A stretch of DNA of 64,000 bases from Candidatus Woesearchaeota archaeon (lineage in GTDB: Archaea; Nanobdellota; Nanobdellia; Woesearchaeales; UBA583). Positions 4,114 to 61,307 of the stretch are shown here, piece after piece. The DNA is taken from positions 767,777 to 831,776 of the forward strand of contig CP060218.1 of assembly GCA_023898345.1 (NCBI GenBank). Reading direction: 5' to 3'. Every line of letters begins with the position of its first letter. Position 1 is the stretch's first letter. Both the position numbers and the translations under genes were made by a program. A model generated the notes under the pieces. The model ran no database searches. It was not told the origin of the DNA and saw only the letters and a program-made list of their open reading frames with translations.

Positions 4114-4114
4114 A

Positions 4115-4519: not shown

Positions 4520-4578
4520 TCATGTTCATATTGATAAATGAACTCTAAAAAAATTATAGATGGTATGTAAAATAAAAT

Positions 4579-4761
4579 TCAAAACTCCAACAAATAAAAA
4601 CCTAAAGCACTTTTACCAATAATTGTGCATTCTAAAAATTTCTTTTTTAGTAAGTTTGGATTTATTCCCTTAGCAGAAACTCTAAAAGTCTCATATTTGT
4701 CATTTAAGAGGAATTTTCCTCTCTTCTCAGATTCAAATTCCATATATTTTGTCGTTTTCAT
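4579..4761 (-). CDS. Hypothetical small protein (60 aa)
   Basis: ORF only; position between membrane protein and integrase. Confidence 0.2.
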   Translation of the reverse strand: MKTTKYMEFESEKRGKFLLNDKYETFRVSAKGINPNLLKKKFLECTIIGKSALGFYLLEF

Positions 4762-4897
4762 AATATTCTAAAATTTGGTTATTTTTAACACTTTGCAAAG
4801 ACTATTAACTTCAATTTAAGCGATTTACACTCAAAATAATGAGAGAAATATTTCAAAACAAGTCTTAGTCTTAAAATGTCAAAAAAGTCTTCAAATA

Positions 4898-5809: not shown

Positions 5810-5812
5810 AGA

Positions 5813-5894
5813 CGCCAAGACTGGGATTTGAACCCAGAATTCCGAAGGAACTACATTAGCAGTGTAGCGCAATACCGAGTTATGCGATCTTGGC
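5813..5894 (-). tRNA. tRNA-Ser (anticodon GCU)
   Basis: Manual fold of minus strand: acceptor GCCAAGA/TCTTGGC, anticodon stem CTACA/TGTAG, loop CTGCTAA, long variable arm TTCC..GGAA, T-arm CTGGG-TTCAAAT-CCCAG, discriminator G. Confidence 0.8.
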
Positions 5895-5923
5895 ATTAGG
5901 TCTCTTTTTTTAGTCGCCGCCGG

Positions 5924-5958
5924 ATTAGCAGTGCTGCGCAATACCGAGTTATGCGACC
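5924..5958 (-). repeat. Partial duplicate of tRNA-Ser 5' half (32/35 identical to 5855-5889)
   Basis: Direct repeat attagcagtg(ct/ta)gcgcaataccgagttatgcga(c/t)c about 30 bp 5' of the tRNA on the same strand. Confidence 0.6.
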
Positions 5959-6041
5959 TCAGCTCGATGAAGATAAACAAGTAAACTTGCTATCAAAAAG
6001 TGATAAGCCAAATCTCTTTTAAAAGATTTTGCTTCTTCCCT

Positions 6042-29073: not shown

Positions 29074-29889
29074 TTAGGAAAGTGGACTTTTTATTTTTTT
29101 GAGCTGTTCACTACTCACTTTTGTGTAGATTTGTGTTGTCGAAAGATCTGCATGCCCTAATAATTCTTGAATTTTACGTATATCAACTCCTGCTTCCAGA
29201 AGATGCGTTGCAAAAGAGTGTCGCAGTGTGTGAACATGAGCTTCTTTTTGTAGTCCTGCCTTTGTCTTTGCTTTTTGCATGGCGTATTGTACAGACCTTG
29301 GGGTCAGTGGTTCTCCCTTTTTGTTCGTAAATATGAAAGCTGCTGGATCTTTGCCTGCTGCACATTTACTTAAATCGTCTTTGAGAGTATCGGAAAGAAT
29401 TGTTAATCTATCTTTTCCTCCTTTTCCATTACGTACCCAAACAATACCTTCGTTTACATCAAGATCTCTTACTCGAAGATGGATGGCTTCACTGAGTCGT
29501 AACCCGGAGGAATAATAAAGTTTGAGGATGGTTCTTTGTCGAATGTTTGATATGGCTGAGAAAAGTTTGTCGAGCTCTTCTTTGTTCAGAACAACTGGAG
29601 TTGAACGCTTCACCTTGGGGGTTTTAATCTCAAAAGAATTTCCTAGCAGTTCATTATATGTAAAAAGAAGGGCTGCCTTAATCAAACCTAATGTTCGTGG
29701 CGAAAGCTGTTCTTCGGAAATTTTTTCAGCTAGAAATGCTTTGATGTCGTCTTGGGTAATCTGTTTTGGATCTTTTTGTATGAAATCTAAGAAGTGTTTA
29801 TTGTACAAAGAATACATTTTGAGTGTTTGTTTTGAAAATCCTCGGAGCTTGAGTTCCGTTTCTATTGTCTTGAGGATATTTCCTTCCAT
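29074..29889 (-). CDS. Tyrosine recombinase XerA/XerC/XerD-like
   Basis: R..HTLRHSFATHLLEAGVDIRKIQELLGHADLSTTQIYTKV catalytic region. Confidence 0.8.
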   Translation of the reverse strand: MEGNILKTIETELKLRGFSKQTLKMYSLYNKHFLDFIQKDPKQITQDDIKAFLAEKISEEQLSPRTLGLIKAALLFTYNELLGNSFEIKTPKVKRSTPVVLNKEELDKLFSAISNIRQRTILKLYYSSGLRLSEAIHLRVRDLDVNEGIVWVRNGKGGKDRLTILSDTLKDDLSKCAAGKDPAAFIFTNKKGEPLTPRSVQYAMQKAKTKAGLQKEAHVHTLRHSFATHLLEAGVDIRKIQELLGHADLSTTQIYTKVSSEQLKKIKSPLS

Positions 29890-44369: not shown

Positions 44370-47300
44370 GTGAAAAAAATCTTACTTTTCTTAATCACAA
44401 CCCTCTGTACATTAACAAGCATTTTTGGAATCAGCACCCTTACAAGTTGCCAAACAATAAATGAATCAGGAGAATACATTCTTGAAAATACAAGCACCTA
44501 TTTTTCAGGAGAAGACAAGCCTTGTTTTACTATTAACTCCAATAACATTTCTTTAGACTGTAATGGAGAAACAATCTTAGGAAGTAACCTTAACTCAGGA
44601 ATTCTCATTAATGCTGTACAAAATATTACGATTAACAGTTGTAAAATTTCAAACTTCACGAAAGGACTTACACTCCAAAATTCAAATTATTCCACCATTA
44701 ATCGTGTAGAGAGCTCTAACACAGATACAGGAATTTTCATCATAAATTCAAACGAAATACTCATTTCTCGTTCCACCATAAAAAAAACAAACACCTCTCT
44801 TCAGATAGACAACACCACATCACTACTCATTCTTGATTTTTTTACTCAAGAAATAAAGAAGGGATTAGCTATCTCAAACTCAATTTCTCCCTTGATAGAG
44901 AATTTTGTCGTTCTAGAAGCCGACAAAGGAGCAACAATAACAAATACTAAAAATCTTTCACTCAAGTTCTTTATTGCTGAGAAAACAGGAACTGGACTGT
45001 ATGTCGAAAATGTAACTCTCTCAAATTTCTCTTCTGTATTTTTCGAAAATATTTCAAACATTGCATTCATAGTAAATAAATCCTCTAAAAATCTTCTCAA
45101 TTACAGTATCAGTTATGCAGCAAATAATGGTTTTTTATTCCAGAATTCAAACAACAACACTATTACAAATATTTCATTTTTAGAAACTTCTAATCTTAGC
45201 TGGACAGTTTATTTTTCAAATTCGGCAGATAATATTTTTTTTGCAAACGATTTACAAACAAAAAATAAAATTATTCGTACTAATAATGAATCTCAAAATA
45301 TTTGGACTTATTCAGTAAACGGGACATCTTATGGAAACTATTGGGACGATTTTCTTTGTTTCTCTTATGAAAATGAGAGCAATGCAAAAGCATGTACAAA
45401 TCCCTCTGTTTATTTAATCTCAACTTCAGAACAAGACATTGCCCCACAAACTAAACAAAATAAAAAGAATGCGTTTTTACTTACTGAATACAGTCGGCAT
45501 CCTTTGAACTACAATAAAAGCCTCGAAAGTATTTTTGATTCTATAACTTACCAAAATTCAGCTTCTTTGGCTTATAATACATGGAATAGTTTAAGTGGAA
45601 ATTTAAGTGGAGAAATAAAGCAGAATCTTACTTTAGATAATGGCAAGTTTACCATTCTAAATACTTCTGAAAAAATCCAAAAGGGACTATACTACAATGC
45701 ATCAGAAGAATTTCTGTCATACAAAATAGAAATCTCAAATCTTAACTTTACTAAAAATTTTGAAAATGAAAATAAAGCAAAAATAAATATTATTGGAACT
45801 CCAATAATGCTGCTTGGTAAACAATATGCCATCTTACAATTTAAGAATCAAAGTTCTTTTTTCAATTCCCTTACAATTGGAGAAGCCAAAGGAAAAATTT
45901 TCATTACAGAAAACTCAATTCAAACTCTAAACCTTAAAAACTCCCAAGTAAATATAAGCCTGATTACGGTATCAGAAAAAAATAAAGTACTTGCAAAAAT
46001 TAATGAGCAGTATATTTTTTTCAACCTCTATGAAACTTTAGAAATCGACAATTATTATTTCACACTAGCATCACTCCGTTTAGCTGAAACCGAGAATGAA
46101 AAAACAGTGGCAGAGTTTATTATTTCAGACAAAATCATAGAATTAAACGATTCTCAATACGTTAAAGTAAATGGTTACGAACTTAATGAAACAAATTTTG
46201 AAACTAATTATATTGTTACTTCAAATTTTTCAGAGGAACTTTCCCAAATTGATATAAAATATTATGTAAAAAATGAAACCTTCCTCTCTGAAAATCAAAG
46301 CTTAGAAGACATTGTTTTTTCCTCCTTTGCAATTAGCTATGAAGGAATAAACCCTCTAACATACTCGACTTTAGACATAACAACAACAAATTCCACAATC
46401 AATTTTAATGGGACATTCAAAAATAATATACAAATCCCAAATGAAATCACCTTAATAACAAACAGTTCAGAAAACTCTCCTCTCTATTTAGGAACAAGTT
46501 CAAAACGAGTATATCATCAAGGATCAGATTTAATAAATATACCTCTCCTATTTCAAGAAAATTCATTAAGGGGTATAGAATATCTTGGAGGCACCACTAT
46601 TGGATTTAATATCACAACACTACCAACAGACATTCCAGAAAACCTCATCCTATTTAGACTCTACGATCAAGACGAATTTTATCTGTACAAAATAAATTCC
46701 ATTAACACTACAAACAAAACGATAAATTTTAGTGAAATTTTGACTTCCCGCTCAACAACATTAAACATAGGTGAACTTGAAAATCAACTCATCCCTAACC
46801 TCAGTCCTGGAACAATTTTCAATAACTCTGACACATTCTTTCTTAATCTTTCAAATTTAGGAAATCCAGATTTGCCACTCACTAATTTTTTCTATGTGAA
46901 TTTTCTTGAATCTGAAACTGAAAACTTTAATTCAACAACAAAAACAGCCTTTCTTAACTTTAGTTATGACTTAAATAAGATTAGCCTAGATGAAAACTCC
47001 CCGAAACCAGATGACTTTTTTCTCTCTTTTTTAAGAGCAGAAAATTCTTCTGAGAATATTACTTGTTATATTGAAAATCCAAATCTTTTCCTCTTTCAGA
47101 AAAAATTTAACAACGGAACAGAATATGAATCTTACATTGATAACTACGGCACAGAGATTTTTATTAACTCATTAAAAAAAGATACTGTAAGACTTAACAT
47201 CCCAGAAAAAGAAGTTCAAGCAGTAGTGACCCTGTATTTTGGGGAAGAAAACACAACACAAGTAAAAGAAATCTTTCCTACTCCTAATACTTCGCTACTC

Positions 47301-49607
47301 AGTTCAAACAAAGTAAATACTTCTTGGTATCTCCTGTGTAAAGAAAATTGTACTCTTGATTCCTTCGCCATCTTTGTAATAGAAGAAAATCTCACCAATA
47401 CTCCTCGAAACTTAAATATTTTTTATTCTGCAAATCAACTTTCACCAAAGCTCCTAGAAATTTCTTTTGATACCTCCTATCTTCAGGGTTATCATTACAT
47501 TATTGCCAACCTTAATTTAAGCAATGGAAGTCAAGAAGTATTTACAGAATATTATTTTAATACTTATGAATATAATCTCACAAGTCTAAAAAACAAGATT
47601 CTTTCAGACGAAAATTTACTTCTAAATGTCTCTTTTGTTTATGAGCCAGTTAAAGAGATTTTCAATCCAGATAATAGAACATATTTTCTTTTATCATACT
47701 ATAACCTAACAACTCAAAATTATGAACATGTTAAATTTGGAAGTTATGAAATTCCCATAAGCAAATCCGGGGTTTATAATTTCACCCTTTTAGGATATCC
47801 TGATTCCTATCCAAAGCTAGGAAACTATTCTCTTTCCCTATTTACAAAAGATGCAAACCAAAAAGAAAAGCTTCAGTTTTCTGTGTATGAAAGAGCACCA
47901 AAAATAACTTCCATATCATTAGCAAATAATTCAGTAATCTCCTCTTCAAATCGAGGAGTCAAACTCATCCTCGGTTTTGATTCAAAAGTTTACAATCTCA
48001 GTTATCAAAATCTTGTTACGGGAAAAAACTATACTTTCTATAGCGAGAACCCCACTGAAATATGGAATATTAGTTTACTGTCAAACATAGGGGTGAATGT
48101 TCTAAATTTAACATTTGCGAATAAATATGGCCTCAAAAATTCCACCGTCCTAAATTACACACTAGTTTTAAATTTAAATGGAAGCAGTAATGATTCAGAT
48201 GGAGATGGAATTAATAACTCCGACGACAAAGTTTTTGGGAATAACTCAAACATTTATACAAATATAGAAAACCTTTCCTTACGAATAAACAATAGTGAAA
48301 ATATCAGCAAGATATTTAATTCTTCTTTAAACATAAGCCTATTTCGAGAAAATAGAAAAATTATAGAATTTGAAAAGAATTTTGCTAATGCTACAATAAA
48401 TTTAACAGAACTTGTAATAAGAGACACCAGAGAAGATAATCACTCCAGACTACTCATTTCAGGAATTGAACTCGAAGATAAAACAAAAAATCTCTATTTC
48501 GATTTACTAGGCGATACTGGCAAATTTGCATCTCTTTGCATAAAAGATGAAGACATTGAAGACTTCTCCGAAATGTCAATAAACTGTACCGGTTCAAATG
48601 AACTATATATTGCAGAAATCCCTTCGATAGTTGGAAACTATACCATTTCATACATAAATGCTTCAAATTCAACTGTTGAAATAACTGGTTTGTCTCACAG
48701 TGCTGTCAGCCAAGTTTGTACTGAGAACTGGACATATTCGGTTTGGTCTCCTTGCACAAACACTGTTCAAACACGAACAGCCACAGATTCAAACGCATGT
48801 GGTACAACAAACTCGCGAGAAAACTTAACACAAAGCTGTTCAGAAAGCAGTTCTGGAGGAGGAGGTACAAGCAGTTCTTCAAGTTCTCAAAAAAAAGAAA
48901 CTCCAGAGGATTCTAGTCAAAATGTAGAAAAAAATATGTTAAATCTCCCACCTAAATTTCAAGAACACTTTCAACTTTTAGTAAATGAAAATTCAAATCT
49001 TAATAAGAACTTAACAGGAATCAAAAAAATAACAATAAAAGAGAAGTCCTCAAATAAAACTATTCTCGAATTTGAGTTTAATTTTTCTTCAAGATTTCTT
49101 AATCTAAGCACAATAGAAATCCAGAAAGGAAAGCAAAGAGACAAAAACTACATAATAATTAAGGGCATAGAGTTATTCGGAGAAACAAAGATTCTTCACT
49201 TAAAAAGAAACAAAAACTCCTCTTTTGTTTGCATAAAAGATGAAGAGATTTCCTCCATATCAGAAATTTCTGAACAATGTGATGAAAAAAGTGAGTATTT
49301 TCTTCCCTGTGATTCTAGAGAATATGGAGGATATATGTGTAGAATAGAGACAGAAGAGTTTGTCATCTCAGGTTTACGACATAGTGCTGTACTTGAGAAA
49401 GAAAACCCAATAATAACCACAGAAGAAAAGGCAATTCAAGAAAAACAAATAGAAGTAAACAAAACAGTAACAGATCTTACTCCTGAAGTTGATAAAGTAG
49501 AGGATAAATCTCGAAAAATGCAATTAATCTTGTATTTAATTGGGGGAAGTATTCTGACTATTGGATTACTTGTAGTAATAATTTTACTCATCGTTAGAAA
49601 AAAATAA
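44370..49607 (+). CDS. Giant surface protein (1745 aa): signal peptide, parallel beta-helix-like repeats, C-terminal TM anchor
   Basis: N-terminal signal, repeated N.T/S-rich beta-helix-like segments, internal duplicated domain, C-terminal hydrophobic helix then RKK. Confidence 0.6.
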   Translation: MKKILLFLITTLCTLTSIFGISTLTSCQTINESGEYILENTSTYFSGEDKPCFTINSNNISLDCNGETILGSNLNSGILINAVQNITINSCKISNFTKGLTLQNSNYSTINRVESSNTDTGIFIINSNEILISRSTIKKTNTSLQIDNTTSLLILDFFTQEIKKGLAISNSISPLIENFVVLEADKGATITNTKNLSLKFFIAEKTGTGLYVENVTLSNFSSVFFENISNIAFIVNKSSKNLLNYSISYAANNGFLFQNSNNNTITNISFLETSNLSWTVYFSNSADNIFFANDLQTKNKIIRTNNESQNIWTYSVNGTSYGNYWDDFLCFSYENESNAKACTNPSVYLISTSEQDIAPQTKQNKKNAFLLTEYSRHPLNYNKSLESIFDSITYQNSASLAYNTWNSLSGNLSGEIKQNLTLDNGKFTILNTSEKIQKGLYYNASEEFLSYKIEISNLNFTKNFENENKAKINIIGTPIMLLGKQYAILQFKNQSSFFNSLTIGEAKGKIFITENSIQTLNLKNSQVNISLITVSEKNKVLAKINEQYIFFNLYETLEIDNYYFTLASLRLAETENEKTVAEFIISDKIIELNDSQYVKVNGYELNETNFETNYIVTSNFSEELSQIDIKYYVKNETFLSENQSLEDIVFSSFAISYEGINPLTYSTLDITTTNSTINFNGTFKNNIQIPNEITLITNSSENSPLYLGTSSKRVYHQGSDLINIPLLFQENSLRGIEYLGGTTIGFNITTLPTDIPENLILFRLYDQDEFYLYKINSINTTNKTINFSEILTSRSTTLNIGELENQLIPNLSPGTIFNNSDTFFLNLSNLGNPDLPLTNFFYVNFLESETENFNSTTKTAFLNFSYDLNKISLDENSPKPDDFFLSFLRAENSSENITCYIENPNLFLFQKKFNNGTEYESYIDNYGTEIFINSLKKDTVRLNIPEKEVQAVVTLYFGEENTTQVKEIFPTPNTSLLSSNKVNTSWYLLCKENCTLDSFAIFVIEENLTNTPRNLNIFYSANQLSPKLLEISFDTSYLQGYHYIIANLNLSNGSQEVFTEYYFNTYEYNLTSLKNKILSDENLLLNVSFVYEPVKEIFNPDNRTYFLLSYYNLTTQNYEHVKFGSYEIPISKSGVYNFTLLGYPDSYPKLGNYSLSLFTKDANQKEKLQFSVYERAPKITSISLANNSVISSSNRGVKLILGFDSKVYNLSYQNLVTGKNYTFYSENPTEIWNISLLSNIGVNVLNLTFANKYGLKNSTVLNYTLVLNLNGSSNDSDGDGINNSDDKVFGNNSNIYTNIENLSLRINNSENISKIFNSSLNISLFRENRKIIEFEKNFANATINLTELVIRDTREDNHSRLLISGIELEDKTKNLYFDLLGDTGKFASLCIKDEDIEDFSEMSINCTGSNELYIAEIPSIVGNYTISYINASNSTVEITGLSHSAVSQVCTENWTYSVWSPCTNTVQTRTATDSNACGTTNSRENLTQSCSESSSGGGGTSSSSSSQKKETPEDSSQNVEKNMLNLPPKFQEHFQLLVNENSNLNKNLTGIKKITIKEKSSNKTILEFEFNFSSRFLNLSTIEIQKGKQRDKNYIIIKGIELFGETKILHLKRNKNSSFVCIKDEEISSISEISEQCDEKSEYFLPCDSREYGGYMCRIETEEFVISGLRHSAVLEKENPIITTEEKAIQEKQIEVNKTVTDLTPEVDKVEDKSRKMQLILYLIGGSILTIGLLVVIILLIVRKK

Positions 49608-49699
49608 CACTCCCCTCAGCTTCTTCTAAATATAAACAAAGGACAAAGGACGGGAGTGACAACATAATTTTAATAAACACTTTTTGTCTGAACTTTCCA

Positions 49700-51994
49700 A
49701 TGGCAACGAAATTCTCTATACTGGGCAATGAAAACTCTGTGTTGTACTACAACTTAAACAAACAGTTTTGCGACATAAGTAAAGTTATTGTGACAAAGGA
49801 AATTCTTCTTGCATCTTTTGAAACAGACACAGTTCGTAACTTGTTTGAGCAACTTAAGGAAACAAAGGATGAAGAATACCTCACGCTTGTACAAGAAGCA
49901 GAAAAAGAAGAACTCTTTGACCAAATGATAAAATCTGAACTCACAAATGCAATCAACGAGAAATTACAAGAGATCTCAGATGTGTACATTGATGTCAAAC
50001 TGAATAATTACAGTTTCATGAACTCTGTCTCGAACAACAAACTGCATCTGACGCTGCGCTGTGAATCTTTCTCTCTCACGCGCTATAATGTTGAAAAAAG
50101 TACTCTTGGTTCAAATATTCGAAAATTACTCCACCTTTATCTTCTGAATAGTGCAAATATTTTCCGCAAAAAATTCATCGACAATATTCAACTAGAAGTA
50201 TATACTGCAATCGACATCCACAAGTGTGTGCTTCTCAAAAAAGAACAAGAATCTCTTCTTCTTAAAGCAGCCTTTGGATATCCTTATCAAGAACCTTTTG
50301 AACATACTGTTGGTGATGAGTTTTATTTTTCAAAAGGTGAAAAATTTACATTTTTTAAAAATAATCAAACACATGCGAATGTTCGTGAGCACAGTTACAT
50401 TACGAATCGTGAAATCCACAGTGCTGAAAAGATTCTCTCTAATCCAGAACTTATTGCAATAAATGAAAAAACTAAAAATATTAGTGATGCTCTTATTGAA
50501 TTAATTATCACAGAAAAAGGAGGCATAAAGATAAATCATATCTCTCCCATGCTTGATCAGTTGTATACAAATTCTGAAAATGGGATTTTGTTTCACAAGG
50601 GAACAAACACGTATACAAAGGTTGCACTTCTGAGTATCAGAGATAAATTAACGGAAGAGACAACAAATCCAAAATATCTCTTTGTGCGAAATAATGAAGA
50701 AACTGAAGAATTGCTTGAGAATTTGCATCTTCTTCAGTATGTTGACGGACTTATTTTTACAAATAACTTTTATGTTCCTCTTTTAGATATTATCGGGCGT
50801 GCAAAAAACATGGACATTTTGTACTATAAGGATGCCTTGAAAAGAAGTTTAGAAGTTGAAATTGATTGGGATAAACTTATCATCCATCAAAAAAACGAAG
50901 AGGCTCAAGCAAATCCTTTTGGGGCAATTTTACAAAAAGAAAAGGAATCTAAAGATGAATTGCTCAATAAACTCAAATCTTTTGACTTGAGTACGCCACC
51001 TCAAGCACAAAGGGAAAGGGCAAATATCGAAAAACTTGCTGAAGGCCTCATTTCTTCTCCGCAATCTAGTACTGCCTCTGCAAACAAAGGAAATGAAGCG
51101 CTCTTCTCAATGGCCAGTCCGAAAAAAGGAGAAAAAGTTTCAGCTTTGGGCATGCTCGCAGCAGCCGCACTTCAAAGAAAACCAGCAGATGAAGAAACCC
51201 CTGCGCTTCAGCAAAAACAGGAAGAAAGTCAGCAAAAACTCCAGTTTTCTGATTTTTCTGAAACTGAAAAGAAAGAAGAATTTTTACAAACTGCACCCAA
51301 GGAAGAGCCTTTTGAAGAAGCAGACCCTTATGATTTTTTTGATGTACCAAAAGATAATCGAACTACCCTTCAAAGTCTCAGTCCACCTGAAGACGAAGAT
51401 GATGAAAGTGAACTTTATGACGAAGTGGAAACTTCTGAACCCGCTCAAAAAATTGATCGTTTTGAAGGAGGAGCTTTGGAGTTACAGCGATATGAACACG
51501 TGCTTGCAACGGAACTTCTAACTACTCTTGAATATGAAAATAAACACTATATTGTGAAGGAAAAAGAAAAACTTCTCGCAAAGAAAGGAAAGCTCTATAT
51601 TATTTGTGATGAGGAACCTGAAGAAAATAATCCTCTACACACGTATATTCTCCCCTTACATTTTGCAGGAAACATTCCCGCCAGAAAGAACCATATTTTT
51701 CTTCTCAAGGATAGCGAAGATTTTTTTCACCTTGATGAAACTGAAATAGATACAAATTATATGCTCAATCTTAATGGTATTCGTGAAGAAAGTAAGGAAC
51801 ACTTTTTACGAGCATGTATTGAAAAGATGGGAACTCTCTCCCTCATTGCCTCACGCTCTGACCTTGCACTCGTTGAAAAAAATATTAATGCCATCACGAG
51901 ACTTTATCTTAAAGACCTTGAAACACAAGAGGAAATAGAAGAAATAAAAGAAGACCTACTAGCCTTTGAAAAGCGCTTCCTTATGAGAGAGTAA
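49700..51994 (+). CDS. Hypothetical protein (764 aa) with acidic low-complexity region
   Basis: ORF only. Confidence 0.4.
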   Translation: MATKFSILGNENSVLYYNLNKQFCDISKVIVTKEILLASFETDTVRNLFEQLKETKDEEYLTLVQEAEKEELFDQMIKSELTNAINEKLQEISDVYIDVKLNNYSFMNSVSNNKLHLTLRCESFSLTRYNVEKSTLGSNIRKLLHLYLLNSANIFRKKFIDNIQLEVYTAIDIHKCVLLKKEQESLLLKAAFGYPYQEPFEHTVGDEFYFSKGEKFTFFKNNQTHANVREHSYITNREIHSAEKILSNPELIAINEKTKNISDALIELIITEKGGIKINHISPMLDQLYTNSENGILFHKGTNTYTKVALLSIRDKLTEETTNPKYLFVRNNEETEELLENLHLLQYVDGLIFTNNFYVPLLDIIGRAKNMDILYYKDALKRSLEVEIDWDKLIIHQKNEEAQANPFGAILQKEKESKDELLNKLKSFDLSTPPQAQRERANIEKLAEGLISSPQSSTASANKGNEALFSMASPKKGEKVSALGMLAAAALQRKPADEETPALQQKQEESQQKLQFSDFSETEKKEEFLQTAPKEEPFEEADPYDFFDVPKDNRTTLQSLSPPEDEDDESELYDEVETSEPAQKIDRFEGGALELQRYEHVLATELLTTLEYENKHYIVKEKEKLLAKKGKLYIICDEEPEENNPLHTYILPLHFAGNIPARKNHIFLLKDSEDFFHLDETEIDTNYMLNLNGIREESKEHFLRACIEKMGTLSLIASRSDLALVEKNINAITRLYLKDLETQEEIEEIKEDLLAFEKRFLMRE

Positions 51995-52000
51995 AGAAAA

Positions 52001-52843
52001 ATGCCCACTGAAATATCTTATACCGGAAGTACAGGGGAAGAAAACCAAGTTCTTTTTTGTAGAGGAAAGGACAGTCTTGCCTCTCTAAGACATATTGAAA
52101 AGACAGGAGAGAGAGTTGCAAACTCGGCCCAAGTTCTTGCTCTCCTCTACAAGGGCATTTCTGCTCTTGAAACGTATCAAGTGCAAACTCTTTCTCCGCC
52201 ACAAATTACTCTGACCACTTGTGATGCACTCGTAATCAAGAGAGAGGGCCAAGAAAGATACAAGCTTTATCTCCAACTAGAAAGTCAACTTTTACTGGAC
52301 AGATTAAAACGAGTTTCTCCCACATCATGGAAACAAGGTGCACCCCTCAGTCCCGGAGACTTTGAATCCTTTACAGCTTCCTCTTTCGAACTCAACAGTG
52401 ACGGGCCGTTTTTTCTCCCTCCTCTCTTGAACCTCCTTACTAGGAACTTGTCTCTGGAACCTCTGCCAAATCTTATCTCTGCCATTTGTAAATACAGGCA
52501 AAAACAAGGTTTTTCTGCGCAAATGCTTTCTCTTCTTCCACCTACAGATACTTGTATTGAAGAAGAGGCGCCACTTCTTTTCCCCATCTCTCTTCTTTTC
52601 ACAAGGAGATCTTTCACATTCTTTGGCGGCACTGGACAAAACTTTTCCAATTTAGTGTATGCCCCTACTCTTTACATGCCACATTCCTTAACGTTCGTAG
52701 GAGTGAACCCTCACGAAACTGCTCAAACTTTACTTCAAGCCCGATTCTCTGAACCAAAACAAGGAGTGAAAACATTGGAAGAATATCTCGGAGTGGAGCC
52801 TAGTGGAGAACGGGGAAAACCACCTGTACTTTATTCTTCTTGA
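52001..52843 (+). CDS. Hypothetical protein (280 aa)
   Basis: ORF only; 6-nt gap after upstream gene. Confidence 0.35.
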   Translation: MPTEISYTGSTGEENQVLFCRGKDSLASLRHIEKTGERVANSAQVLALLYKGISALETYQVQTLSPPQITLTTCDALVIKREGQERYKLYLQLESQLLLDRLKRVSPTSWKQGAPLSPGDFESFTASSFELNSDGPFFLPPLLNLLTRNLSLEPLPNLISAICKYRQKQGFSAQMLSLLPPTDTCIEEEAPLLFPISLLFTRRSFTFFGGTGQNFSNLVYAPTLYMPHSLTFVGVNPHETAQTLLQARFSEPKQGVKTLEEYLGVEPSGERGKPPVLYSS

Positions 52844-52898
52844 GCTCTTGAGAAAAGCGCAAAAATTTATAACTAAAATCACTTTTTCTCTAAAACAA

Positions 52899-52972
52899 GC
52901 GCCTATAGTTTAGCTTGGATAGAACGGTCGGTTGCGGTCCGGCTGGCAGGGGTTCAAATCCTCTTGGGCGCG
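52899..52972 (+). tRNA. tRNA-Arg (anticodon GCG)
   Basis: Manual fold: acceptor GCGCCTA/TGGGCGC, D-arm GTTT..GAAC, anticodon stem GTCGG/CCGGC with loop TTGCGGT, T-arm AGGGG-TTCAAAT-CCTCT. Confidence 0.8.
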
Positions 52973-53057
52973 TCGGAAAATCTTTCTTTTCTCTCCACAA
53001 TGTTTGTTACTTTTCTGTAATTAAATAGATTTATACTAAAAATAGGAAAAAAAAGTT

Positions 53058-56000
53058 ATGCAAGAAAAAAATGTAAAACCTCAAAAGCAAAAAATAAAGA
53101 ATACTGTTCTCTCACTCTTTCTCCTTCTCTTTACAAACTGCCTCTTTTTGAGTACGGATGTTTTTTCCACCCATCTCAAAAATGATCTTCCTTATACGAT
53201 TGAGATTTTGGATTTGGGCCAATCTTCAACTTCTCCAATAGAAAAAATCAAACTTACTCAAAATGCTTCTACACTCCTCACATCAGGAAATGCATATCTT
53301 GTACTGCAAACTAGTACAGATAAATCTTCCTTTTGGATGCAAATCCCAAGCGAACTTTCAAGTTCTGCCATAAAAACAACTTACCTCAGACCTTACGAAC
53401 AAGGAAGTCCAAAACTCCTCTCTTCGGTTTGTCAGGCAGAGGCAACACTACAAGAAACGATAAGTACTCTCTCTTCTGATAGTATTATTACGTATACAGC
53501 TTATGCTAATTTTGAAACAAATACAGAACTTGAACAAAGATTAGCTCAATTACAAACAAACTACAAAACTGCGATTGAGAACAATATGTACATGAAAGTC
53601 TTTGCGTATTTAGAGATTACAATAAAAGATGCTGAGAGTGGCCATGAACTGAATAAACGATATCTTCTTCCAACAAAAAGTACGACAGATGGAACTTACT
53701 TCTACAATGCTCAAGTTGAAAATAGCCCGACAAATCTCTATGGAACGTTTGCCCAATTTCAAGATCTTAGCACTTCCACTCACTTTGCTTTTTTCAAGAA
53801 TATTTCTTTAATGAACAATGCGAGAATTCCTTATCAATTACTTAAGGAAGAAAGTTCTCCAAAAACGTTTTCGTTTTCTCTTGCTGAACTCAATCCGTCT
53901 CTCCTTTGGAAAAATAATTCTGTCTACGACCTTACTTTACACCTTATCCCCATAGATGGAAAGTGTGACTTTAATGAAAATGGGATCCTTGAAGAGAATA
54001 GTGAATTCATGGTAACAAGTCTTACTACTGCCACAATTTATCCTTTAAGTAATTCCGATCCTTCCCCCTATAGAAAAATAAAAGTTCTAGGAGAAGGAAA
54101 CATAGCATCCTCCCTTATTGCAAAAAGTCATGAGTGTGGTGATACTCTTTGTACAACATTTCTCTCAACAACTGGAGCTGGTAAAGAGGGGGAATCGTAC
54201 ATTTTAACTGGCATTACTCCTTTTGAATGGACAGCACCGGCAAACAAGGCTCTTTCCTTTACGGCACCAAACAGAAGAGTTTTCTTTTCAGGTCCTTTTA
54301 ATATGAAACTTACATATAATGACGCCAGTGGACAAAGCTACTATCTCCAAAATCTCACTCCTCGTTATCTTACTCCCCAAACTGTACAAAGAATAATTGA
54401 TAGTAAAAAAGACGAACAAAAATATATGAATCTTTTTTTAGGAAAGCAGGCATCAGCGTTTTCTAATTTTGATCTTTTCTTAGACACTTGTTCAGCGCAC
54501 ATCATGGATGAAAGTTTTGATCCAACTACTCATATTCTTACCATAGACGTTCTTAGTAGTCTTGAAGCTTTGAAGAACCCTTGGAATTTCAAGGATATAG
54601 CAGGCTATGAAGATTTTTCAGAATATTACGACATGAAAATTCTTTCTTTCCTAAAGATCTCTAATCCTAGTACGGGTGAGCTAACGTATCTTGCGGCTCA
54701 GGACACCAGCAGCCAGGACTATGCGTATTCACAAGGCGGAGTTGCCGGTACAGACAAGCAATTGGAAACCCTGTTCGGATCGGAATTTCTTCTTCTTAAG
54801 AATAAAATTGCATCATCAGTAGGAACTTACAAGGTTACTAAGGTTAGTGATATGACAACAAGCATTCAGTTTGATCTTTCACCTCTTTATGAGGCTGCGT
54901 TTCTTCCTGAACTGGAGACCCCCCAAATTGAAATTTATGCAATTCCTGTAGATGGAAAATGTGACTTTGATGAGAACGGCCTCCTTGAAGGAACTGAATC
55001 AAAATTAAGTTCTTGGACCATAGAATCTTCTCTGCCTCTTGGCGGCGTACTTGGAACTGAACAAACGCCTATTGAAGTAAAGAAACTTCCTAGAGGGTAT
55101 TCACTGTGGACCACTACGGTAAATGAAGAGACTGCCCAAGAATTAGTCTTTAACAATAAAAAAAATGAAAAAAGACGTTTTGTTCTTCTGTCGAACGGGT
55201 CTCTCTATTTTAAGGATAGGAATGATGAACTCCACTTCATTGCGTTCTCTTCCTTTGTCCCTGTTGAAGCAAATATTTCCATTAACTATAAAGAACTAGT
55301 TGCTGACGGAAGTGAGGAGTTTCTCACGGATCCTAGTATAAATCCCGAAACAAAAGCACCTCTTTACCTAAAAGAAGATACCATATTGAAAATGAATCTT
55401 GTCACTCAGTTTAGAAATAAAGAAGACGCTTTGGAAAAAGTTAACAAGACTCTTACTCTTATGAACTTCTTGGATATTGAAAAAAATCTTACGTACATTG
55501 AAAGCACAAATAGAACACGAGTACTTATTTCAGTAAAAAATGTTCCTCTTTCTTATAGAGAAAATTTAACGATATATGTTGTTCTTCCAAAAGAGGATTT
55601 GCCAAGTTTAGAAAAACTTACTTTGCTTACTAACTCTAAACACTTTTTTGTAAAAGATAAAGACCCTATTATTGGATGGCAGTTTAATTTTAGTGATGAA
55701 AATGAATCGGTCGGATTTGAACTCGAAGGGAATGCCAGTACGGGCACAGTTATTGTGACACAAGACCCTGTTATTTACAATGAAGGAAACCTCCTCATTA
55801 ACTACAGACAAGAACAGTGTAATCCTGATGAAGCTTATCTTTTTGATATCAATGACCTCATTGACTCTCCTGTAAACAGACCGCAAAGTTCGGATCTCTA
55901 CCATATTTGTGTTGGACATACTTCGCACTATTTAACAAATCAAACGCTTAGTTCAGTTCTCAATCTCTTTAATATGACTACGGCTGCGACAGCAAATCTT

Positions 56001-56849
56001 TCTATAACTGGATTTTTTCCGAGTTTCACAATCAACCTTTCAGATCAAACTGACCCTTTTACAACATGGAGTTTTTCCATTGGCAGTCTTAATCCGGGTG
56101 GGTATTCTTGCCTTGGTTCGCTTGAAAACACTGCTAACTCTCTCTTTGGCGATTGTGAGTATACGGAAAATAGAGTGTGGATAAAGCTCAATACGGATGA
56201 TAAATCTCCTCAAACAACAATCAGCATTTCTTCACCGGGCGGCATTATTGAGGCAACACTTAATGCTAGCGATCTCCCAAATCCTGGTGCTTCTGGTGTT
56301 AAGGGAATTTATTATTGCGTGGACGAGCTTGGAGTCTGTAATCCTGATAACATTAGTTCTTTTTCAGCAGGAGAAAATATCACGTTTTCTCTGACGTGTT
56401 CAGGAATTAGCGGCTGCACAAAATATGTTCGTTTCTTTGCAGAAGATAATAAGGGAAATAAGGAAGCTCTTCAAACTGAGACTGTCACAATTTTGGACAA
56501 GGGCTCGAAATGTGAGGCAGATTGTACTGCAAAACCTACACCAAATCGATACCTCAAAGAATGTAATGGCGTTAGTGGATGCAGCTATTATCCTTTTGCT
56601 CCAAATGGTGTTCCGGACGCTGGAGTGTACGTTGCAAATGCCTGCCATTTCCTAACTAAAGGAAGTTATGCTTCATACAATGCTAGCCATGATATTTTGT
56701 GCCCGAATGGACCGGTTATTGCAAAACGTCTTACGAATGAAACTGTTGATACGAAAGAGAGCACTTGTGAACACATCGTTAAAGATAGTTATTTGGTTCT
56801 TGTCAATGGAGAAAAAGTTGAGATGAGTATTCTTGTCTGCCTTTCTTAA
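53058..56849 (+). CDS. Large secreted protein (1263 aa) with internal duplicated domain and Cys-rich C-terminus
   Basis: Signal peptide; repeat IP(I/V)DGKCDF(N/D)ENG(I/L)LE occurs twice. Confidence 0.55.
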   Translation: MQEKNVKPQKQKIKNTVLSLFLLLFTNCLFLSTDVFSTHLKNDLPYTIEILDLGQSSTSPIEKIKLTQNASTLLTSGNAYLVLQTSTDKSSFWMQIPSELSSSAIKTTYLRPYEQGSPKLLSSVCQAEATLQETISTLSSDSIITYTAYANFETNTELEQRLAQLQTNYKTAIENNMYMKVFAYLEITIKDAESGHELNKRYLLPTKSTTDGTYFYNAQVENSPTNLYGTFAQFQDLSTSTHFAFFKNISLMNNARIPYQLLKEESSPKTFSFSLAELNPSLLWKNNSVYDLTLHLIPIDGKCDFNENGILEENSEFMVTSLTTATIYPLSNSDPSPYRKIKVLGEGNIASSLIAKSHECGDTLCTTFLSTTGAGKEGESYILTGITPFEWTAPANKALSFTAPNRRVFFSGPFNMKLTYNDASGQSYYLQNLTPRYLTPQTVQRIIDSKKDEQKYMNLFLGKQASAFSNFDLFLDTCSAHIMDESFDPTTHILTIDVLSSLEALKNPWNFKDIAGYEDFSEYYDMKILSFLKISNPSTGELTYLAAQDTSSQDYAYSQGGVAGTDKQLETLFGSEFLLLKNKIASSVGTYKVTKVSDMTTSIQFDLSPLYEAAFLPELETPQIEIYAIPVDGKCDFDENGLLEGTESKLSSWTIESSLPLGGVLGTEQTPIEVKKLPRGYSLWTTTVNEETAQELVFNNKKNEKRRFVLLSNGSLYFKDRNDELHFIAFSSFVPVEANISINYKELVADGSEEFLTDPSINPETKAPLYLKEDTILKMNLVTQFRNKEDALEKVNKTLTLMNFLDIEKNLTYIESTNRTRVLISVKNVPLSYRENLTIYVVLPKEDLPSLEKLTLLTNSKHFFVKDKDPIIGWQFNFSDENESVGFELEGNASTGTVIVTQDPVIYNEGNLLINYRQEQCNPDEAYLFDINDLIDSPVNRPQSSDLYHICVGHTSHYLTNQTLSSVLNLFNMTTAATANLSITGFFPSFTINLSDQTDPFTTWSFSIGSLNPGGYSCLGSLENTANSLFGDCEYTENRVWIKLNTDDKSPQTTISISSPGGIIEATLNASDLPNPGASGVKGIYYCVDELGVCNPDNISSFSAGENITFSLTCSGISGCTKYVRFFAEDNKGNKEALQTETVTILDKGSKCEADCTAKPTPNRYLKECNGVSGCSYYPFAPNGVPDAGVYVANACHFLTKGSYASYNASHDILCPNGPVIAKRLTNETVDTKESTCEHIVKDSYLVLVNGEKVEMSILVCLS

Positions 56850-56851
56850 AA

Positions 56852-57343
56852 ATGGAAAAAAAAGCTGAAATTCATACTGTCTTCATCTTTATCCTTTCAA
56901 TTATCATGATTCTTTTCATTGGATATCTTGTAACAAAATTTACGCTTACGTTTGTTGAAGATAAAGAAATGAGAGAAAACTCATTAATCTATACACATTT
57001 ACGAGCGGACATAGAAAAAGTTGCTAGTAATTACGGCTCTGAAAAATTTGCTGAGTATAAGGTCTCAAGCAAAGCTCAATATCTGTGTGTTGCTAGTCAA
57101 TCATTCTGTTCACCAGAGGGGACATTGTTACCTGAAAGTACTCTTGAAAAAATTCAAGTTTTATATGAAACTGGATCTAATGTTGTGTTGCTTGATAACA
57201 GTGCAATTCTGACCCACAATAAAATAGAAAATATTAATGCGGATCCTGCTTGCTTTTGTGTAAAAATTAGTAAGGGGATAATCAAGTTGTTTATTGAGAA
57301 TAGGAATAATAAGGTCTTTGTCACGCCATTGGATGATGAATAA
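56852..57343 (+). CDS. Small membrane-anchored protein
   Basis: Single N-terminal TM helix; starts 3 nt after the upstream gene. Confidence 0.4.
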   Translation: MEKKAEIHTVFIFILSIIMILFIGYLVTKFTLTFVEDKEMRENSLIYTHLRADIEKVASNYGSEKFAEYKVSSKAQYLCVASQSFCSPEGTLLPESTLEKIQVLYETGSNVVLLDNSAILTHNKIENINADPACFCVKISKGIIKLFIENRNNKVFVTPLDDE

Positions 57344-58942: not shown

Positions 58943-59065
58943 CTTACGAGCAGCGAAAGCCATTGTTCGTGTTCGAGTTAGAAGGACCATTGTTCAAGTT
59001 CAGAGCAAAGGCACCCGCGTTTGCACCATTGTTCCAATTGCCCCCGGACAGGAAAACACCCTTTG
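58943..59065 (-). repeat. DGR template repeat (TR)
   Basis: 123-bp match to 59971-60093; 17 of 19 differences are at TR adenines on the minus strand; TR reads KGVFLSGGNWNNGANAGAFALNLNNGPSNSNTNNGFRCS-stop. Confidence 0.8.
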
Positions 59066-59106: not shown

Positions 59107-59481
59107 TTAATATAAATTTGAGGTATACTTCTTTAGTAATCCTCCCAATAACTTACCGAGTAGTTCTGATTTCTCAAGCATTAATAGATATTGATTAAAT
59201 GGCAGAAAATGCAAATCCTTTGCTATCCTAAGAAGAAGTTTAAATTTGTCAAAAAGATAACTTATTTTCCGTAACTGAGAACTCTTATCTTTTTGGTTTA
59301 GTCTTGTAAATTTATCGAGTATGATTAACATTTCTAAAGCTGTTTCATCAATACTCTGCCTCAATGTAAATTTTTCACTCTTAGGGAACCTTGCAAGCGA
59401 AGGATACAAGTTTAGATAAAGATTGTACACTTCATGATAAAGTAAAAAACCATCATCTTTCTTACCACAATTATTTTCCAT
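59107..59481 (-). CDS. Avd-like accessory protein (four-helix-bundle type)
   Basis: 124 aa, size and position between VR and TR; LYP..FPK..LRQ pattern resembles Avd family; similarity judged by eye. Confidence 0.5.
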   Translation of the reverse strand: MENNCGKKDDGFLLYHEVYNLYLNLYPSLARFPKSEKFTLRQSIDETALEMLIILDKFTRLNQKDKSSQLRKISYLFDKFKLLLRIAKDLHFLPFNQYLLMLEKSELLGKLLGGLLKKYTSNLY

Positions 59482-59836
59482 TTTTGTTGTCAGGTTGTTC
59501 CAATTTTCTTATTAGGCCATTCATGTATTTTATACTGTCCTCAAGAGTATTTGAATAATTTTCTTTGAGTATGTTCAAGTCTTTCAAAGTCGATAATTCA
59601 ATTTGAAGTTGTGATAGCAAAATCCTCACCTTGTTGTATATTTGTAACTTTCCTTTCAGAGACCAGTAATTATATCCTGCATTTAAATCGGGGAAAATCT
59701 CTATAACATGAGAGTAAGCTTTTTCGATTAATACTTTATGCCCCGTACTATTTACTCTCAAAGCATCCAATTCTTGAATTATCTTCAAGAAGTTTGGAAA
59801 ATATTCTCGATATATTGGCAAATCAAAAGCATTCAT
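59471..59836 (-). CDS. Hypothetical DGR-associated accessory protein (121 aa)
   Basis: Overlaps the Avd-like ORF by 11 nt, lies between target gene and TR. Confidence 0.35.
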   Translation of the reverse strand: MNAFDLPIYREYFPNFLKIIQELDALRVNSTGHKVLIEKAYSHVIEIFPDLNAGYNYWSLKGKLQIYNKVRILLSQLQIELSTLKDLNILKENYSNTLEDSIKYMNGLIRKLEQPDNKNGK

Positions 59837-59856: not shown

Positions 59857-59903
59857 GAACATGCTTCGCATGTTCTCATCCCTGGGGCGGCATTTAGCCG
59901 CCC
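59857..59903 (-). promoter_or_regulatory. Two perfect hairpins just 3' of the VR (GAACATGC-TTC-GCATGTTC and GGGCGGC-ATTTA-GCCGCCC)
   Basis: Stems read directly from sequence at 59857-59875 and 59885-59903; a GC-only stem stands out in this AT-rich DNA. Confidence 0.4.
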
Positions 59904-59962: not shown

Positions 59963-61303
59963 TCATCGTGCAAAGGAGCAGCGAAAGCCATAGTCCGTGC
60001 TCGAGTGAGAAGGACCATTGTCCAAGCGCAGAGCAAAGGCCCCCGCGCGCGCACCAGAGTCCCAAGCGCCCCCGGACAGGAAAACACCCTTTGACGCACA
60101 ATATCCAGTACAAAAATCGGGATACTCATTCACATTATTATACGCACCCAAAATGTCGTAACCATCGTAATATCTCCCCATTCCTTGATTCGCATTCCAT
60201 CCATTTGAAGGAAGCTTCAAAGTGGGAACAAGACTTGCAACCTTGCCTGTGCCGTCATTGCTATGGTAACTCATCCATTGCTGGTCTCCTCCATGATATC
60301 TGTATGGTGAACCAAGACTCTCATTTGCATAGACCCAAGCGTCAACCCATTCCCAGACATTGCCTGCAAAGTCCCAGAGTACTTCTCCGTTTGACAAGTT
60401 CAAAGTTCTTCTTTGTCCTGCACATGCCCTTCCACTTGTTGTGTCATCACCAGCTACAAAGTTGTTATACGAACCATCACAAGAACTCAGACTATCTCCT
60501 GTCCCAGAGTAGCCATTTCCGTCGTCAGTGTCAGCAGCAAGTCTGCTTGAGGGACTGTTGTCGTTGTGCCCAGAGTACAAGAAACCAGTGCCAACGACAG
60601 AGGAGTTCCAGTTGCTTGCGACAAACTCAACATTGTGTGCAATCGTCAGCCTCTCTTCTTCCGTCATCAAATGAAAGCCAGAACCCAAACTCTCACACTC
60701 TACCTTTGCTGCGTTCCACGTAATCGAAGCCCAAGGTAAACTAGCAGCTTGCGATGTCGCAACACCCCCAACATTCTTTGCTTCGTACTTCATCACACAA
60801 AAATTGTGTGTGCCGAGTTCAGCATTTCCGGGAACGACAACATAGCCGTCCGGACATGGGTTCTCGTACACGTAAGAATTCACATACTCCGTCTTTGAAT
60901 AAATCCTGCCATCCGTCACAACGACAATCTCATTCTTCCCTTCGTTGGCGCAGTCACTCATAGGCAAGACATTCAAAGAATTGTTTGTCAAACCAGAAAC
61001 AAAGCAATCATTTCCGTTAATAGAAACGCTTTGGATTTTAGCATTTCCCTTCACAAAAAGAGTTCCGCCAGACAGACCTTCAACAGAGAAAGAGCCAGAA
61101 GAACTTTGTGTGTCGACATGTGAAAGTGTAGAACTAGAAAAAGATTGGTACCAGGTTTGAAATCCGAGTGCCGCCAGAATAGCAACGACAATCAGCAAGA
61201 CACTAGCGACAACAGGAGAAATAGCTTTTTTCGAAGAGAGACACGAAGAAGACATCCTAAAATTAGACGAGACAAGTTTTGGGGAAAGCTTAGTTCTGTT
61301 CAT
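59963..61303 (-). CDS. DGR target protein: N-terminal TM anchor, C-terminal C-type-lectin/FGE-like variable domain
   Basis: ATG at 61303; TM segment VVASVLLIVVAILAALG; C-terminus ...NVWEWVDAW...GGAWDSGARAGAFALRLDNGPSHSSTDYGFRCSFAR; VR is the last 41 codons. Confidence 0.8.
   Translation of the reverse strand: MNRTKLSPKLVSSNFRMSSSCLSSKKAISPVVASVLLIVVAILAALGFQTWYQSFSSSTLSHVDTQSSSGSFSVEGLSGGTLFVKGNAKIQSVSINGNDCFVSGLTNNSLNVLPMSDCANEGKNEIVVVTDGRIYSKTEYVNSYVYENPCPDGYVVVPGNAELGTHNFCVMKYEAKNVGGVATSQAASLPWASITWNAAKVECESLGSGFHLMTEEERLTIAHNVEFVASNWNSSVVGTGFLYSGHNDNSPSSRLAADTDDGNGYSGTGDSLSSCDGSYNNFVAGDDTTSGRACAGQRRTLNLSNGEVLWDFAGNVWEWVDAWVYANESLGSPYRYHGGDQQWMSYHSNDGTGKVASLVPTLKLPSNGWNANQGMGRYYDGYDILGAYNNVNEYPDFCTGYCASKGVFLSGGAWDSGARAGAFALRLDNGPSHSSTDYGFRCSFAR
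59971..60093 (-). repeat. DGR variable repeat (VR) at the 3' end of the target gene
   Basis: Aligned to TR by hand; all 11 AAY codons of TR are substituted in VR. Confidence 0.8.
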
Positions 61304-61307
61304 TTTT

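Follow-up and report, generated by a model that had tools for sequence, protein, structure and literature searches.

Introduction

Diversity-generating retroelements (DGRs) occur in unusual abundance in DPANN archaea and in bacteria of the candidate phyla radiation (CPR). The archaeal clade-5 and CPR clade-2 targets typically have no recognisable transmembrane (TM) or other domain, and their nature has been left open (Roux et al. 2021, PMC8144416). Targets with the formylglycine-generating enzyme (FGE) type of C-type-lectin (CLec) domain are known (PMC6328139), as are cellular targets that are anchored in the membrane (PMC8144416). Here a DGR target gene is described at 59963-61303, on the minus strand of a 64,000 nt stretch of the genome of a Candidatus Woesearchaeota archaeon (GenBank assembly GCA_023898345.1, contig CP060218.1, positions 767,777 to 831,776 of the forward strand), the whole of which is referred to as the window. 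The product of this gene is probably a DGR-diversified, modular type IV pilin-like adhesin, which would display a variable lectin face to the host or partner cell of this DPANN archaeon.

The closest described variable proteins, the FGE-subtype CLec proteins TaqVP (5VF4), TvpA (2Y3C), and Mtd (1YU0), share with the window protein a variable region (VR) at the extreme C-terminus, a GGxW...G.F.L.L...GFR scaffold with AAY-templated variable residues, invariant last residues after the VR, the presence of a reverse transcriptase (RT) and an Avd adjacent to the gene, and the fold (Foldseek, 1.4e-10 to 3e-3). TaqVP and TvpA, of which the latter is a lipoprotein, consist of a single domain each, and Mtd forms a trimer in a phage tail fibre. 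A pilin module is absent from all three, whereas the CLec domain of the window protein appears to be joined to a type IV pilin module of the archaeal kind. The DGRs of DPANN archaea and Nanoarchaeota (Paul et al. 2015, PMC4372165) and the AvpA protein (Handa et al. 2016, PMC5006420) likewise combine a nano-sized, uncultivated archaeon with a CLec-fold target; in the texts searched, a pilin, signal peptide, or TM segment is not mentioned for these targets.

The combination of a pilin module and an effector module is known from the bacterial modular type IV pilins, such as PilB and PilC of S. sanguinis, CofB, and TcpB, the design of which has been argued to be compatible mainly with a location at the pilus tip (PMC8179133). 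These have a GFxxxE motif and carry von Willebrand factor A (vWA), ConA-lectin, or beta-repeat modules that are not hypermutated, in contrast to the archaeal pilin module and DGR-diversified effector module seen here. The archaeal pilins and adhesion filaments of P. calidifontis (8FK7), S. solfataricus (8FJS), and Ignicoccus (Iho670, 5KYH/3J1R) resemble the N-terminal part of the window protein in their class III signal, hydrophobic helix, and beta-sandwich head. The pilins 8FK7, 6W8U, 8FJS, and 8Q30 have about 130-145 residues with no extra domain, and Iho670 (5KYH) has 303; the window protein differs from these in its additional lectin domain of 300 residues and in that its assembly into a filament is putative. 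An adhesive pilus component is also diversified by a DGR in Bacteroides, namely the tip adhesins of its type V pili (bioRxiv 10.1101/2024.11.15.621889), but these are gut bacteria with an unrelated class of pilus, assembled by chaperone-free strand exchange, and type IV pili are not mentioned there. The literature searched contains no archaeal type IV pilin-like DGR target and no prepilin-type parallel in the CPR, with priority in Paul et al. 2017 (Nat Microbiol) not excluded. The lone exception is one line in which a "GspG-type pilin" is placed among the scarce domains holding a VR (PMC11661182).

Type IV pili serve in attachment and cell-cell contact in many prokaryotes, small symbionts included (PMC9938205, PMC6142677). 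For one widespread target family, this locus would give a concrete answer to what is diversified, namely a lectin domain on a type IV pilin module. It would also link pili, as the attachment organ of episymbionts, with DGRs, as an engine of adaptation, which were formerly discussed apart. Archaeal examples would be added to the modular pilin concept, so far described for bacteria, and specific proteins and residues can be nominated for work on binding, localisation, and host range.

Results and Discussion

The DGR cassette and its target

In coding direction on the minus strand, the order of the cassette is RT, a 13 nt tandem array, the target, a gene designated ORF121, Avd, and the template repeat (TR). 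The RT (61484-62533), with about 350 aa ahead of the array, matches RVT_1 in Pfam (3.6e-24) and has IGNVTSQ and YVDD in its translation; in this assembly it is not closed by a separate stop codon. The accessory protein Avd (59107-59481) is identified by Pfam bAvd (3e-14) and NCBIfam DivGenRetAVD (2.9e-15). The target is an open reading frame (ORF) of 446 codons from an ATG at 61303 to a TGA at 59965-59963, as the first-pass annotation of this DNA had placed it. The 118 nt TR (58948-59065, minus strand; repeat family D2) was recognised by its alignment to the VR and lies 1028 nt downstream of it on the coding strand. The cassette is flanked by the genes for ribosomal proteins L15e and S8e, and exact matches to the L15e and Avd proteins are recorded for Candidatus Woesearchaeota / Nanoarchaeota archaeon; it is therefore chromosomal in a DPANN archaeon. 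An origin of the cassette in a virus or mobile element was considered and rejected, given these neighbours in a cellular woesearchaeotal genome.

The C-terminus of the target, KGVFLSGGAWDSGARAGAFALRLDNGPSHSSTDYGFRCSFAR before the stop codon, is encoded by a direct repeat of 58948-59065. The VR covers codons 404-443 (59976-60093, minus strand) and translates to a sequence ending in GGAWDSGARAGAFALRLDNGPSHSSTDYGFRCSFAR and a stop; the TR would translate to one ending in GGNWNNGANAGAFALNLNNGPSNSNTNNGFRCS and a stop, with eleven AAC or AAT codons. Of the 118 positions, 16 are mismatched between TR and VR. Fifteen of these mismatches are among the 27 adenines of the TR (hypergeometric P = 7e-11), and the one mismatch that is not at an adenine is a silent T to G change. 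The 11 diversifiable codons derived from AAY are 413, 415, 416, 419, 426, 428, 429, 433, 435, 437, and 438. As eleven NNY codons they allow for some 15^11 (9e12) protein variants, and stop codons are never created.

Four alleles of this VR are available, from the window and from loci L002, L089 (GCA_020637525.1), and L090 (GCA_020430405.1), the last two being 99.8-99.9% identical to the window across 8 kb. Both L089 and L090 carry the TR of the window unchanged, and the VRs of these two and of the window all differ from one another. Adenines of the TR account for nearly all of the VR differences in each case (15/16 in the window, 14/15 in L002, 13/14 in L089, 15/15 in L090). In the 1341 nt gene, L002 differs from the window at 27 positions, 18 of them in the 118 nt VR and 9 in the first 171 nt, with no differences at all between nt 172 and 1225. 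That this gene is a genuine DGR target is, with a C-terminal VR in a full DGR, adenine-biased mismatches, and the alleles of other strains, as good as certain, and the earlier proposal that its GGxW…GFRC C-terminus is diversified is borne out.

The 3' and 5' edges of the VR are also where two further, independent public contigs of the same strain break off, L091 at window position 59968 and L092 at 60090. Such ends are usual for assemblies that break on a hypervariable stretch, and they are consistent with heterogeneity of the VR within the sample. In the sister genome, on the same contig as L089 and about 140 kb away, there are two tandem paralogues of the target with 79-80% identity (L001, 10001-12593) and no RT or TR nearby. 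These were considered as remote targets of this TR and rejected, since the codons equivalent to the VR differ at many non-adenine positions. The related locus L007 has two tandem target copies (740-2092 and 2475-3827) with 100% identical proteins, including the VR, and ahead of each lie a duplicate of the RT 3' end and 13 nt units; either the duplication is very recent or it is an artefact of assembly.

The variable domain

Residues 150-446 (59966-60856, minus strand) form an FGE-subtype CLec domain with inserts, as indicated by Foldseek matches to 5VF4, 1YU4, 2Y3C, and PvdO. An AlphaFold2 model built from 114 homologues has a pLDDT of 89.5 overall and of 95-98 in the C-terminal 300 residues. 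When it was compared to the PDB, the top Foldseek matches were variable proteins of DGRs (TaqVP 5VF4, 1.4e-10; Mtd 1YU0-4, 1e-4 to 6e-3; TvpA 2Y3C, 3e-3), with the FGE-like PvdO ranking after them. A C-type-lectin/FGE-like variable domain, as the first-pass annotation had proposed, is thus what the model best matches.

The family profile also matches TaqVP by sequence (6.6e-9) with the VR in register, such that GGAWDSGARAG pairs with GGDWGNGGVAG of TaqVP. A PDB search with the C-terminal 299 residues as a single sequence found no match, and it was only the family profile that reached TaqVP and FGE. In this alignment the variable residues 413, 416, and 419 fall on D348, N351, and V354 of TaqVP and W414 falls on W349. 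In TaqVP the first three are variable and solvent-exposed and the tryptophan is an invariant residue of the binding site (PMC6328139). Since they align to exposed residues of TaqVP, the variable residues of the window protein are predicted, by homology, to be solvent-exposed on the CLec fold. In an alignment of 112 homologues, no columns of the region vary more than those of the eleven AAY positions (mean entropy 3.34 versus 1.61 bits, P = 2e-6), and the columns of G411, G412, G421, G439, F440, and R441 are near-invariant.

The N-terminal module

Residues 28-46 (Kyte-Doolittle maximum 2.83) form the sole hydrophobic segment of the protein. It is preceded by six K/R and no D/E, the flank on its other side is at a net charge of -2, and there are ten cysteines in the C-terminal part. 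Because of this distribution, the target is predicted to be oriented N-in/C-out, with an outside-facing ectodomain, which agrees with the topology expected by the first-pass annotation. A single N-terminal hydrophobic segment, also noted there, is indeed present; what has changed is that it does not look like a plain anchor, and very probably belongs to a class III signal peptide and a pilin module.

The N-terminus reads KKA/ISPVVASVLLIVVAIL, the slash marking the predicted cleavage site, followed by a long helix and then a beta-sandwich. A class III signal has a short basic leader, [KR]-[GAS] right before the cleavage site, and some 20 hydrophobic residues, and the sequence ...SSKKA/ISPVVASVLLIVVAILAALGF has this form, with the basic leader running into the hydrophobic stretch. 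The NCBIfam model TIGR02537 (archaellin/type IV pilin N-terminal domain) matches SSKKA/ISPVVASVLLIVVAILAALGFQTWY at residues 24-45 with 20.2 bits against a cut-off of 20. As a single sequence, the N-terminus matches the pilin 8FK7 (E = 4e-4) and Iho670 of Ignicoccus, and a profile of 28 archaeal homologues lifts the match to 8FK7 to 9.6e-10. The structure 8FK7 was identified as the type IV pilin of Pyrobaculum calidifontis in PMC10334743. It is residue 5 of this pilin that aligns with ISPVV. With the same profile, the mature N-terminus of Iho670 (VSPVIATLLL) aligns exactly at I28, and cleavage by a prepilin peptidase is therefore predicted after KKA, between A27 and I28.

This divides the protein into a basic leader ending in KKA (residues 1-27, or 17-27 with M17 as the start; 61223-61303, net charge +6), a hydrophobic alpha-helix of the pilin module (residues 28-63; 61115-61222; 30-63 in the model), a beta-sandwich (residues ~70-145; 60869-61096) with conserved Cys100, Cys118, and Cys150, and the lectin domain. 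In the model the long N-terminal helix packs on the beta-sandwich head, as in the pilin fold. The protein is hence bimodular, with a pilin module at 24-145 and the FGE/CLec module at 150-446, such that a pilin-sized module of about 120 residues after cleavage carries a lectin module of 300. The bacterial prepilin methylation motif GFxxxE is absent from the window protein, which has the archaeal motif instead.

The leader M-[DN]-R-x-x-[IL]-x-[SP]-K-[FL]-V-S-S-x-F that precedes KKA/ISPVV is shared by the window protein and P0112 (from L007), both of which are DGR-linked, and this long leader is also found in P0009 and P0024. Several members with no RT within 10 kb, such as P0004 and P0011, have leaders of 8-12 residues. 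The long leader could be conserved at the level of DNA or RNA rather than as a peptide.

Distribution of the family

A database search identified 504 homologues, with N-termini of several classes. Those of Woesearchaeota, Nanoarchaeota, and other archaea are of the class KKAISPVVATALLLVVAVVAVVGFQ, with KKAQVSIEMILIL, a class III signal by Pfam, in a few archaea; those of Saccharibacteria, Dojkabacteria, and other CPR bacteria have (R/K)GFTIVELLIVIVVIAILAA, the bacterial prepilin motif; and the remainder have Sec-type signals. Among the 114 aligned members, TIGR02537 matches 28 and IV_pilin_GFxxxE or GspG matches 46-47, and GFT(I/L)VE is present in 46-47 of the 114, all relatives from CPR bacteria. 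A scan of one genome per species returned 536 relatives, and the best 79 of the 536 loci belong mostly to Saccharibacteria and other CPR bacteria, Oligoflexales/Bdellovibrionales, and DPANN archaea, which are lineages of episymbionts or predators. Actinobacteria, a phylum to which known hosts of Saccharibacteria belong, have a few copies of the FGE/CLec module (in Cryobacterium, Glaciihabitans, and Leucobacter), and these copies could be due to transfer or contamination.

An RT and Avd are beside the homologue in about 6 of the best 79 loci, and six sampled loci of the family have neither RT nor TR within 10 kb. Control by a DGR is the exception, not the rule, in this FGE/CLec family. Where it is present, the adenine bias recurs. 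The TR/VR mismatches are at adenines in 20 of 20 cases in the archaeal locus L075, the protein of which begins KA/LEPLIASILLIVVAV, and in 19 of 21 and 20 of 21 cases in L016 and L073 of Saccharibacteria, which have RGFTIVELL; in L080 and L063 the counts are 16/16 and 17/17. Because of the adenine-biased TR/VR pairs of L075 and of L016 and L073, the same lectin module, on what is by sequence an archaeal or a bacterial pilin module, is judged to be under DGR control in both domains. The architecture RT-target-ORF121-Avd-TR recurs in L007 and partly in L008/L010, where the spacing from VR to TR is 1028 nt, as in the window.

It is tempting, although this is less likely than not, to suppose that one FGE/CLec adhesin module has been exchanged between the domains and mounted on the type IV pilin of each, KKA/ISPVV in DPANN archaea and GFTIVE in Saccharibacteria and other CPR bacteria, under DGR control in both. 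DGR-hypermutated pilus-tip adhesins would then be a general device for host recognition in ultra-small episymbionts, and the same module would serve, outside DGR control, in relatives from Oligoflexia and Bdellovibrionota, which are predatory. If true, this would answer what the "domain-less" DGR targets of DPANN archaea and CPR bacteria do.

Proposed function and alternatives

The RT/Avd/TR cassette rewrites the 11 AAY-templated codons at the C-terminal end of the FGE-type lectin domain. In the proposed mechanism, the basic leader would stay in the cytoplasm, and a prepilin peptidase of the PibD/FlaK type would cut after KKA (A27). The hydrophobic helix would hold the protein in the membrane until it is extracted to become part of a type IV filament, with the tip as its probable place, or alternatively would remain in the membrane as a short stalk, like that of a pseudopilus or bindosome. 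The tip is the most likely position because of the bulky C-terminal module of 300 aa, as has been argued for bacterial modular pilins. The variable lectin face would bind a changing surface structure of the host or partner cell, and the variants supplied by DGR mutagenesis would enable the lineage to track variation in the ligand or to switch partners. Cleavage, incorporation into a pilus, and the ligand are all part of what we infer here; display at a pilus tip and binding to a host are plausible.

Two results weigh against a pilin-like adhesin. The Pfam family Pilin_N (PF07790) scores 13.9 bits, below its threshold of 25.2, and is found at E < 0.01 in only 1 of the 28 archaeal homologues, and among the 37 window ORFs scanned there is no prepilin peptidase, type IV filament ATPase or platform, or other pilus machinery. 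A scan for the strict class III motif likewise found no second pilin-like ORF in the window. Pilin genes that stand alone are common in archaea (PMC4858521). The blindness of Pfam to this module probably explains the labels of "at most TM" from survey pipelines that use Pfam and TMHMM, and would explain why the module was overlooked by earlier ones.

With the same mode of display, the ligand might instead be viruses, in an arms race of decoys and receptors, or particles or nutrient polymers, as for the binding proteins with class III signals of the Sulfolobus bindosome. This overlaps the proposed function in everything but the ligand. The N-terminus has a weak NCBIfam match to BasC of the bindosome, the domain is shared by phage proteins matched in PHROG, including a tail protein, and both virus-host arms races and particle binding are among the options given for cellular targets by Roux et al. 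(PMC8144416). The concentration of the family in episymbiotic and predatory lineages, however, favours cell-cell recognition, and the neighbouring genes include no transporter or bindosome genes, so a ligand of this other kind is rather unlikely.

Also unlikely, and a shade more so, is that this is a plain type II signal-anchor protein, with an uncleaved TM helix that places the lectin domain directly on the cell membrane, unrelated to pili. The one hydrophobic segment with positive-inside charges would suit this, as would the two results that count against a pilin, and most cellular DGR targets have been described as anchored by a TM segment or signal peptide (Roux et al., PMC8144416). A plain anchor would leave without explanation the specific motif KKA/ISPVV...LLIVVA with its matches to TIGR02537, 8FK7, and Iho670, and the conserved pilin-sized module of helix and sandwich that comes next. 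The bacterial relatives have, in the equivalent position, GFT(I/L)VE, which is beyond doubt a prepilin motif.

The target frame stays open upstream, via the 13 nt array, into the RT gene, which makes a single ORF of 856 aa. It is improbable that the true product is this RT-target fusion, read in one frame from 62533 to 59963, rather than a separate protein of 446 aa. There is no stop codon between RT and target, and the 99.9% identical assembly L089 is also in frame (817 aa) despite having 9 fewer repeat units. The frame is set by the copy number of the 13 nt unit, though, and two assemblies would agree on it by a 1-in-3 chance. The RT of the related cassette L007 terminates 13 nt into the target in a different frame, L090 and L002 keep the target with the same ATG and no RT upstream, and the starts of the homologues fall 8-30 residues ahead of the cleavage motif. 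From what is generally known of prepilin peptidases, a class III signal 430 residues deep in a cytoplasmic enzyme would not be processed. Of the two candidate starts of the target, M1 (61303) and M17 (61255), an independent start at or near either is supported, since both the homologues and the strains with no RT point to a start there.

That the C-terminal domain is a formylglycine-generating or SUMF1/EgtB/PvdO-type enzyme, not a binding module, is barely credible in spite of the homologue annotations ("formylglycine-generating enzyme", "SUMF1/EgtB/PvdO family nonheme iron enzyme"), the presence of PvdO and FGE among the fold and sequence matches, and a weak match to Pfam FGE-sulfatase (PF03781; 19.2 bits, below the gathering cut-off of 23.3, which some homologues pass), given that residues 403-441 have no cysteine where FGE has its catalytic pair (DSYC of FGE 6MUJ aligns to DSGA), that exactly the segment equivalent to the FGE active site is randomised by the DGR, that the nearest structures are non-enzymatic variable proteins, and that FGE activity of such proteins was judged unlikely by the authors of the TaqVP study (PMC6328139). 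Because of the sub-threshold score, the missing catalytic cysteines, and the randomised segment, the variable domain is not an FGE enzyme.

The tandem array and the presence of the RT

The array between RT and target (61307-61483) consists of 13.6 perfect copies of a 13 nt unit (TRF score 354), which on the plus strand reads TCTGAACCCTGTC. Its copy number is 13.6 in the window, 4.6 in both L089 and L090, and 1.6 in L002, so that in these close strains all are equal to 1 modulo 3. In L007 a variant unit is present in 2 copies. The array is probably within the 5' untranslated region (UTR) of the target or the 3' end of the RT gene. It could act as a switch for termination or expression of the RT, or could be a length polymorphism of the target 5' UTR.

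The presence of the RT is itself polymorphic (breakpoint at about 61580 of the window; L090, 3986-4178; L002, 796-946). From 61580 downstream, L090 and L002 align to the window with 98-99.9% identity. Beyond the breakpoint L090 has the target, ORF121, Avd, and the identical TR, and the 2.3 kb contig of L002 stops just past the target. In place of the RT there is a CobA/CobO-like gene in L090 and an unrelated ORF in L002. The VRs of both of these RT-less loci are still adenine-diversified relative to the window TR. The approximately 100 nt retained upstream of the target in both contain a TTTATAA box, possibly the target promoter.

ORF121 and hairpins

ORF121 (59471-59836, minus strand) always precedes Avd in this DGR lineage and overlaps the start of Avd by 11 nt. 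Its orthologues adjoin Avd in L007 (70% identity), L008/L010 (80%), and L075 (36%). There is no family match in Pfam, NCBIfam, or PHROGs. That it might be a second Avd was rejected, as a sequence comparison found no similarity to Avd, and ORF121 is a candidate for an extra accessory factor of this archaeal DGR lineage.

A GC-rich hairpin, GGGCGGC-TAAAT-GCCGCCC (59885-59903, minus strand), is located 73 nt downstream of the end of VR/TR homology, in a region with a DNA fold z-score of -3.97. This distance is greater than that at which the hairpin of the Bordetella phage DGR is said to lie. In the L007 orthologue the hairpin is GGGATGGC-TAAAT-GCCATCCC, and the changes in the stem are compensatory with respect to that in the window. 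The element may be a target-recognition hairpin, by analogy with the one described in the DGR of a Bordetella phage (Guo et al. 2011, PMC3240598). A second hairpin, GAACATGC-GAA-GCATGTTC, follows the stop codon of the target at 59857-59875 (minus strand).

Other features of the window

Directly upstream of the DGR locus, at 44370-57343 on the plus strand, are large ORFs of 1745, 764, 280, 1263, and 163 aa that belong to no Pfam family. Those of 1745, 1263, and 163 aa have hydrophobic N-termini, and these ORFs may encode further surface proteins of the symbiont. At 93-5980, at the other end of the window, an ORF annotated as "archaeal phage integrase" (4898-5980, minus strand) has as its neighbours an McrBC component and a UvrD-helicase/PD-(D/E)XK nuclease. 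The 5' part of this integrase ORF overlaps tRNA-Ser (5811-5895, minus strand), which suggests that an element has integrated at the tRNA gene. Another integrase, of the XerC/D type, is present at 29074-29889.

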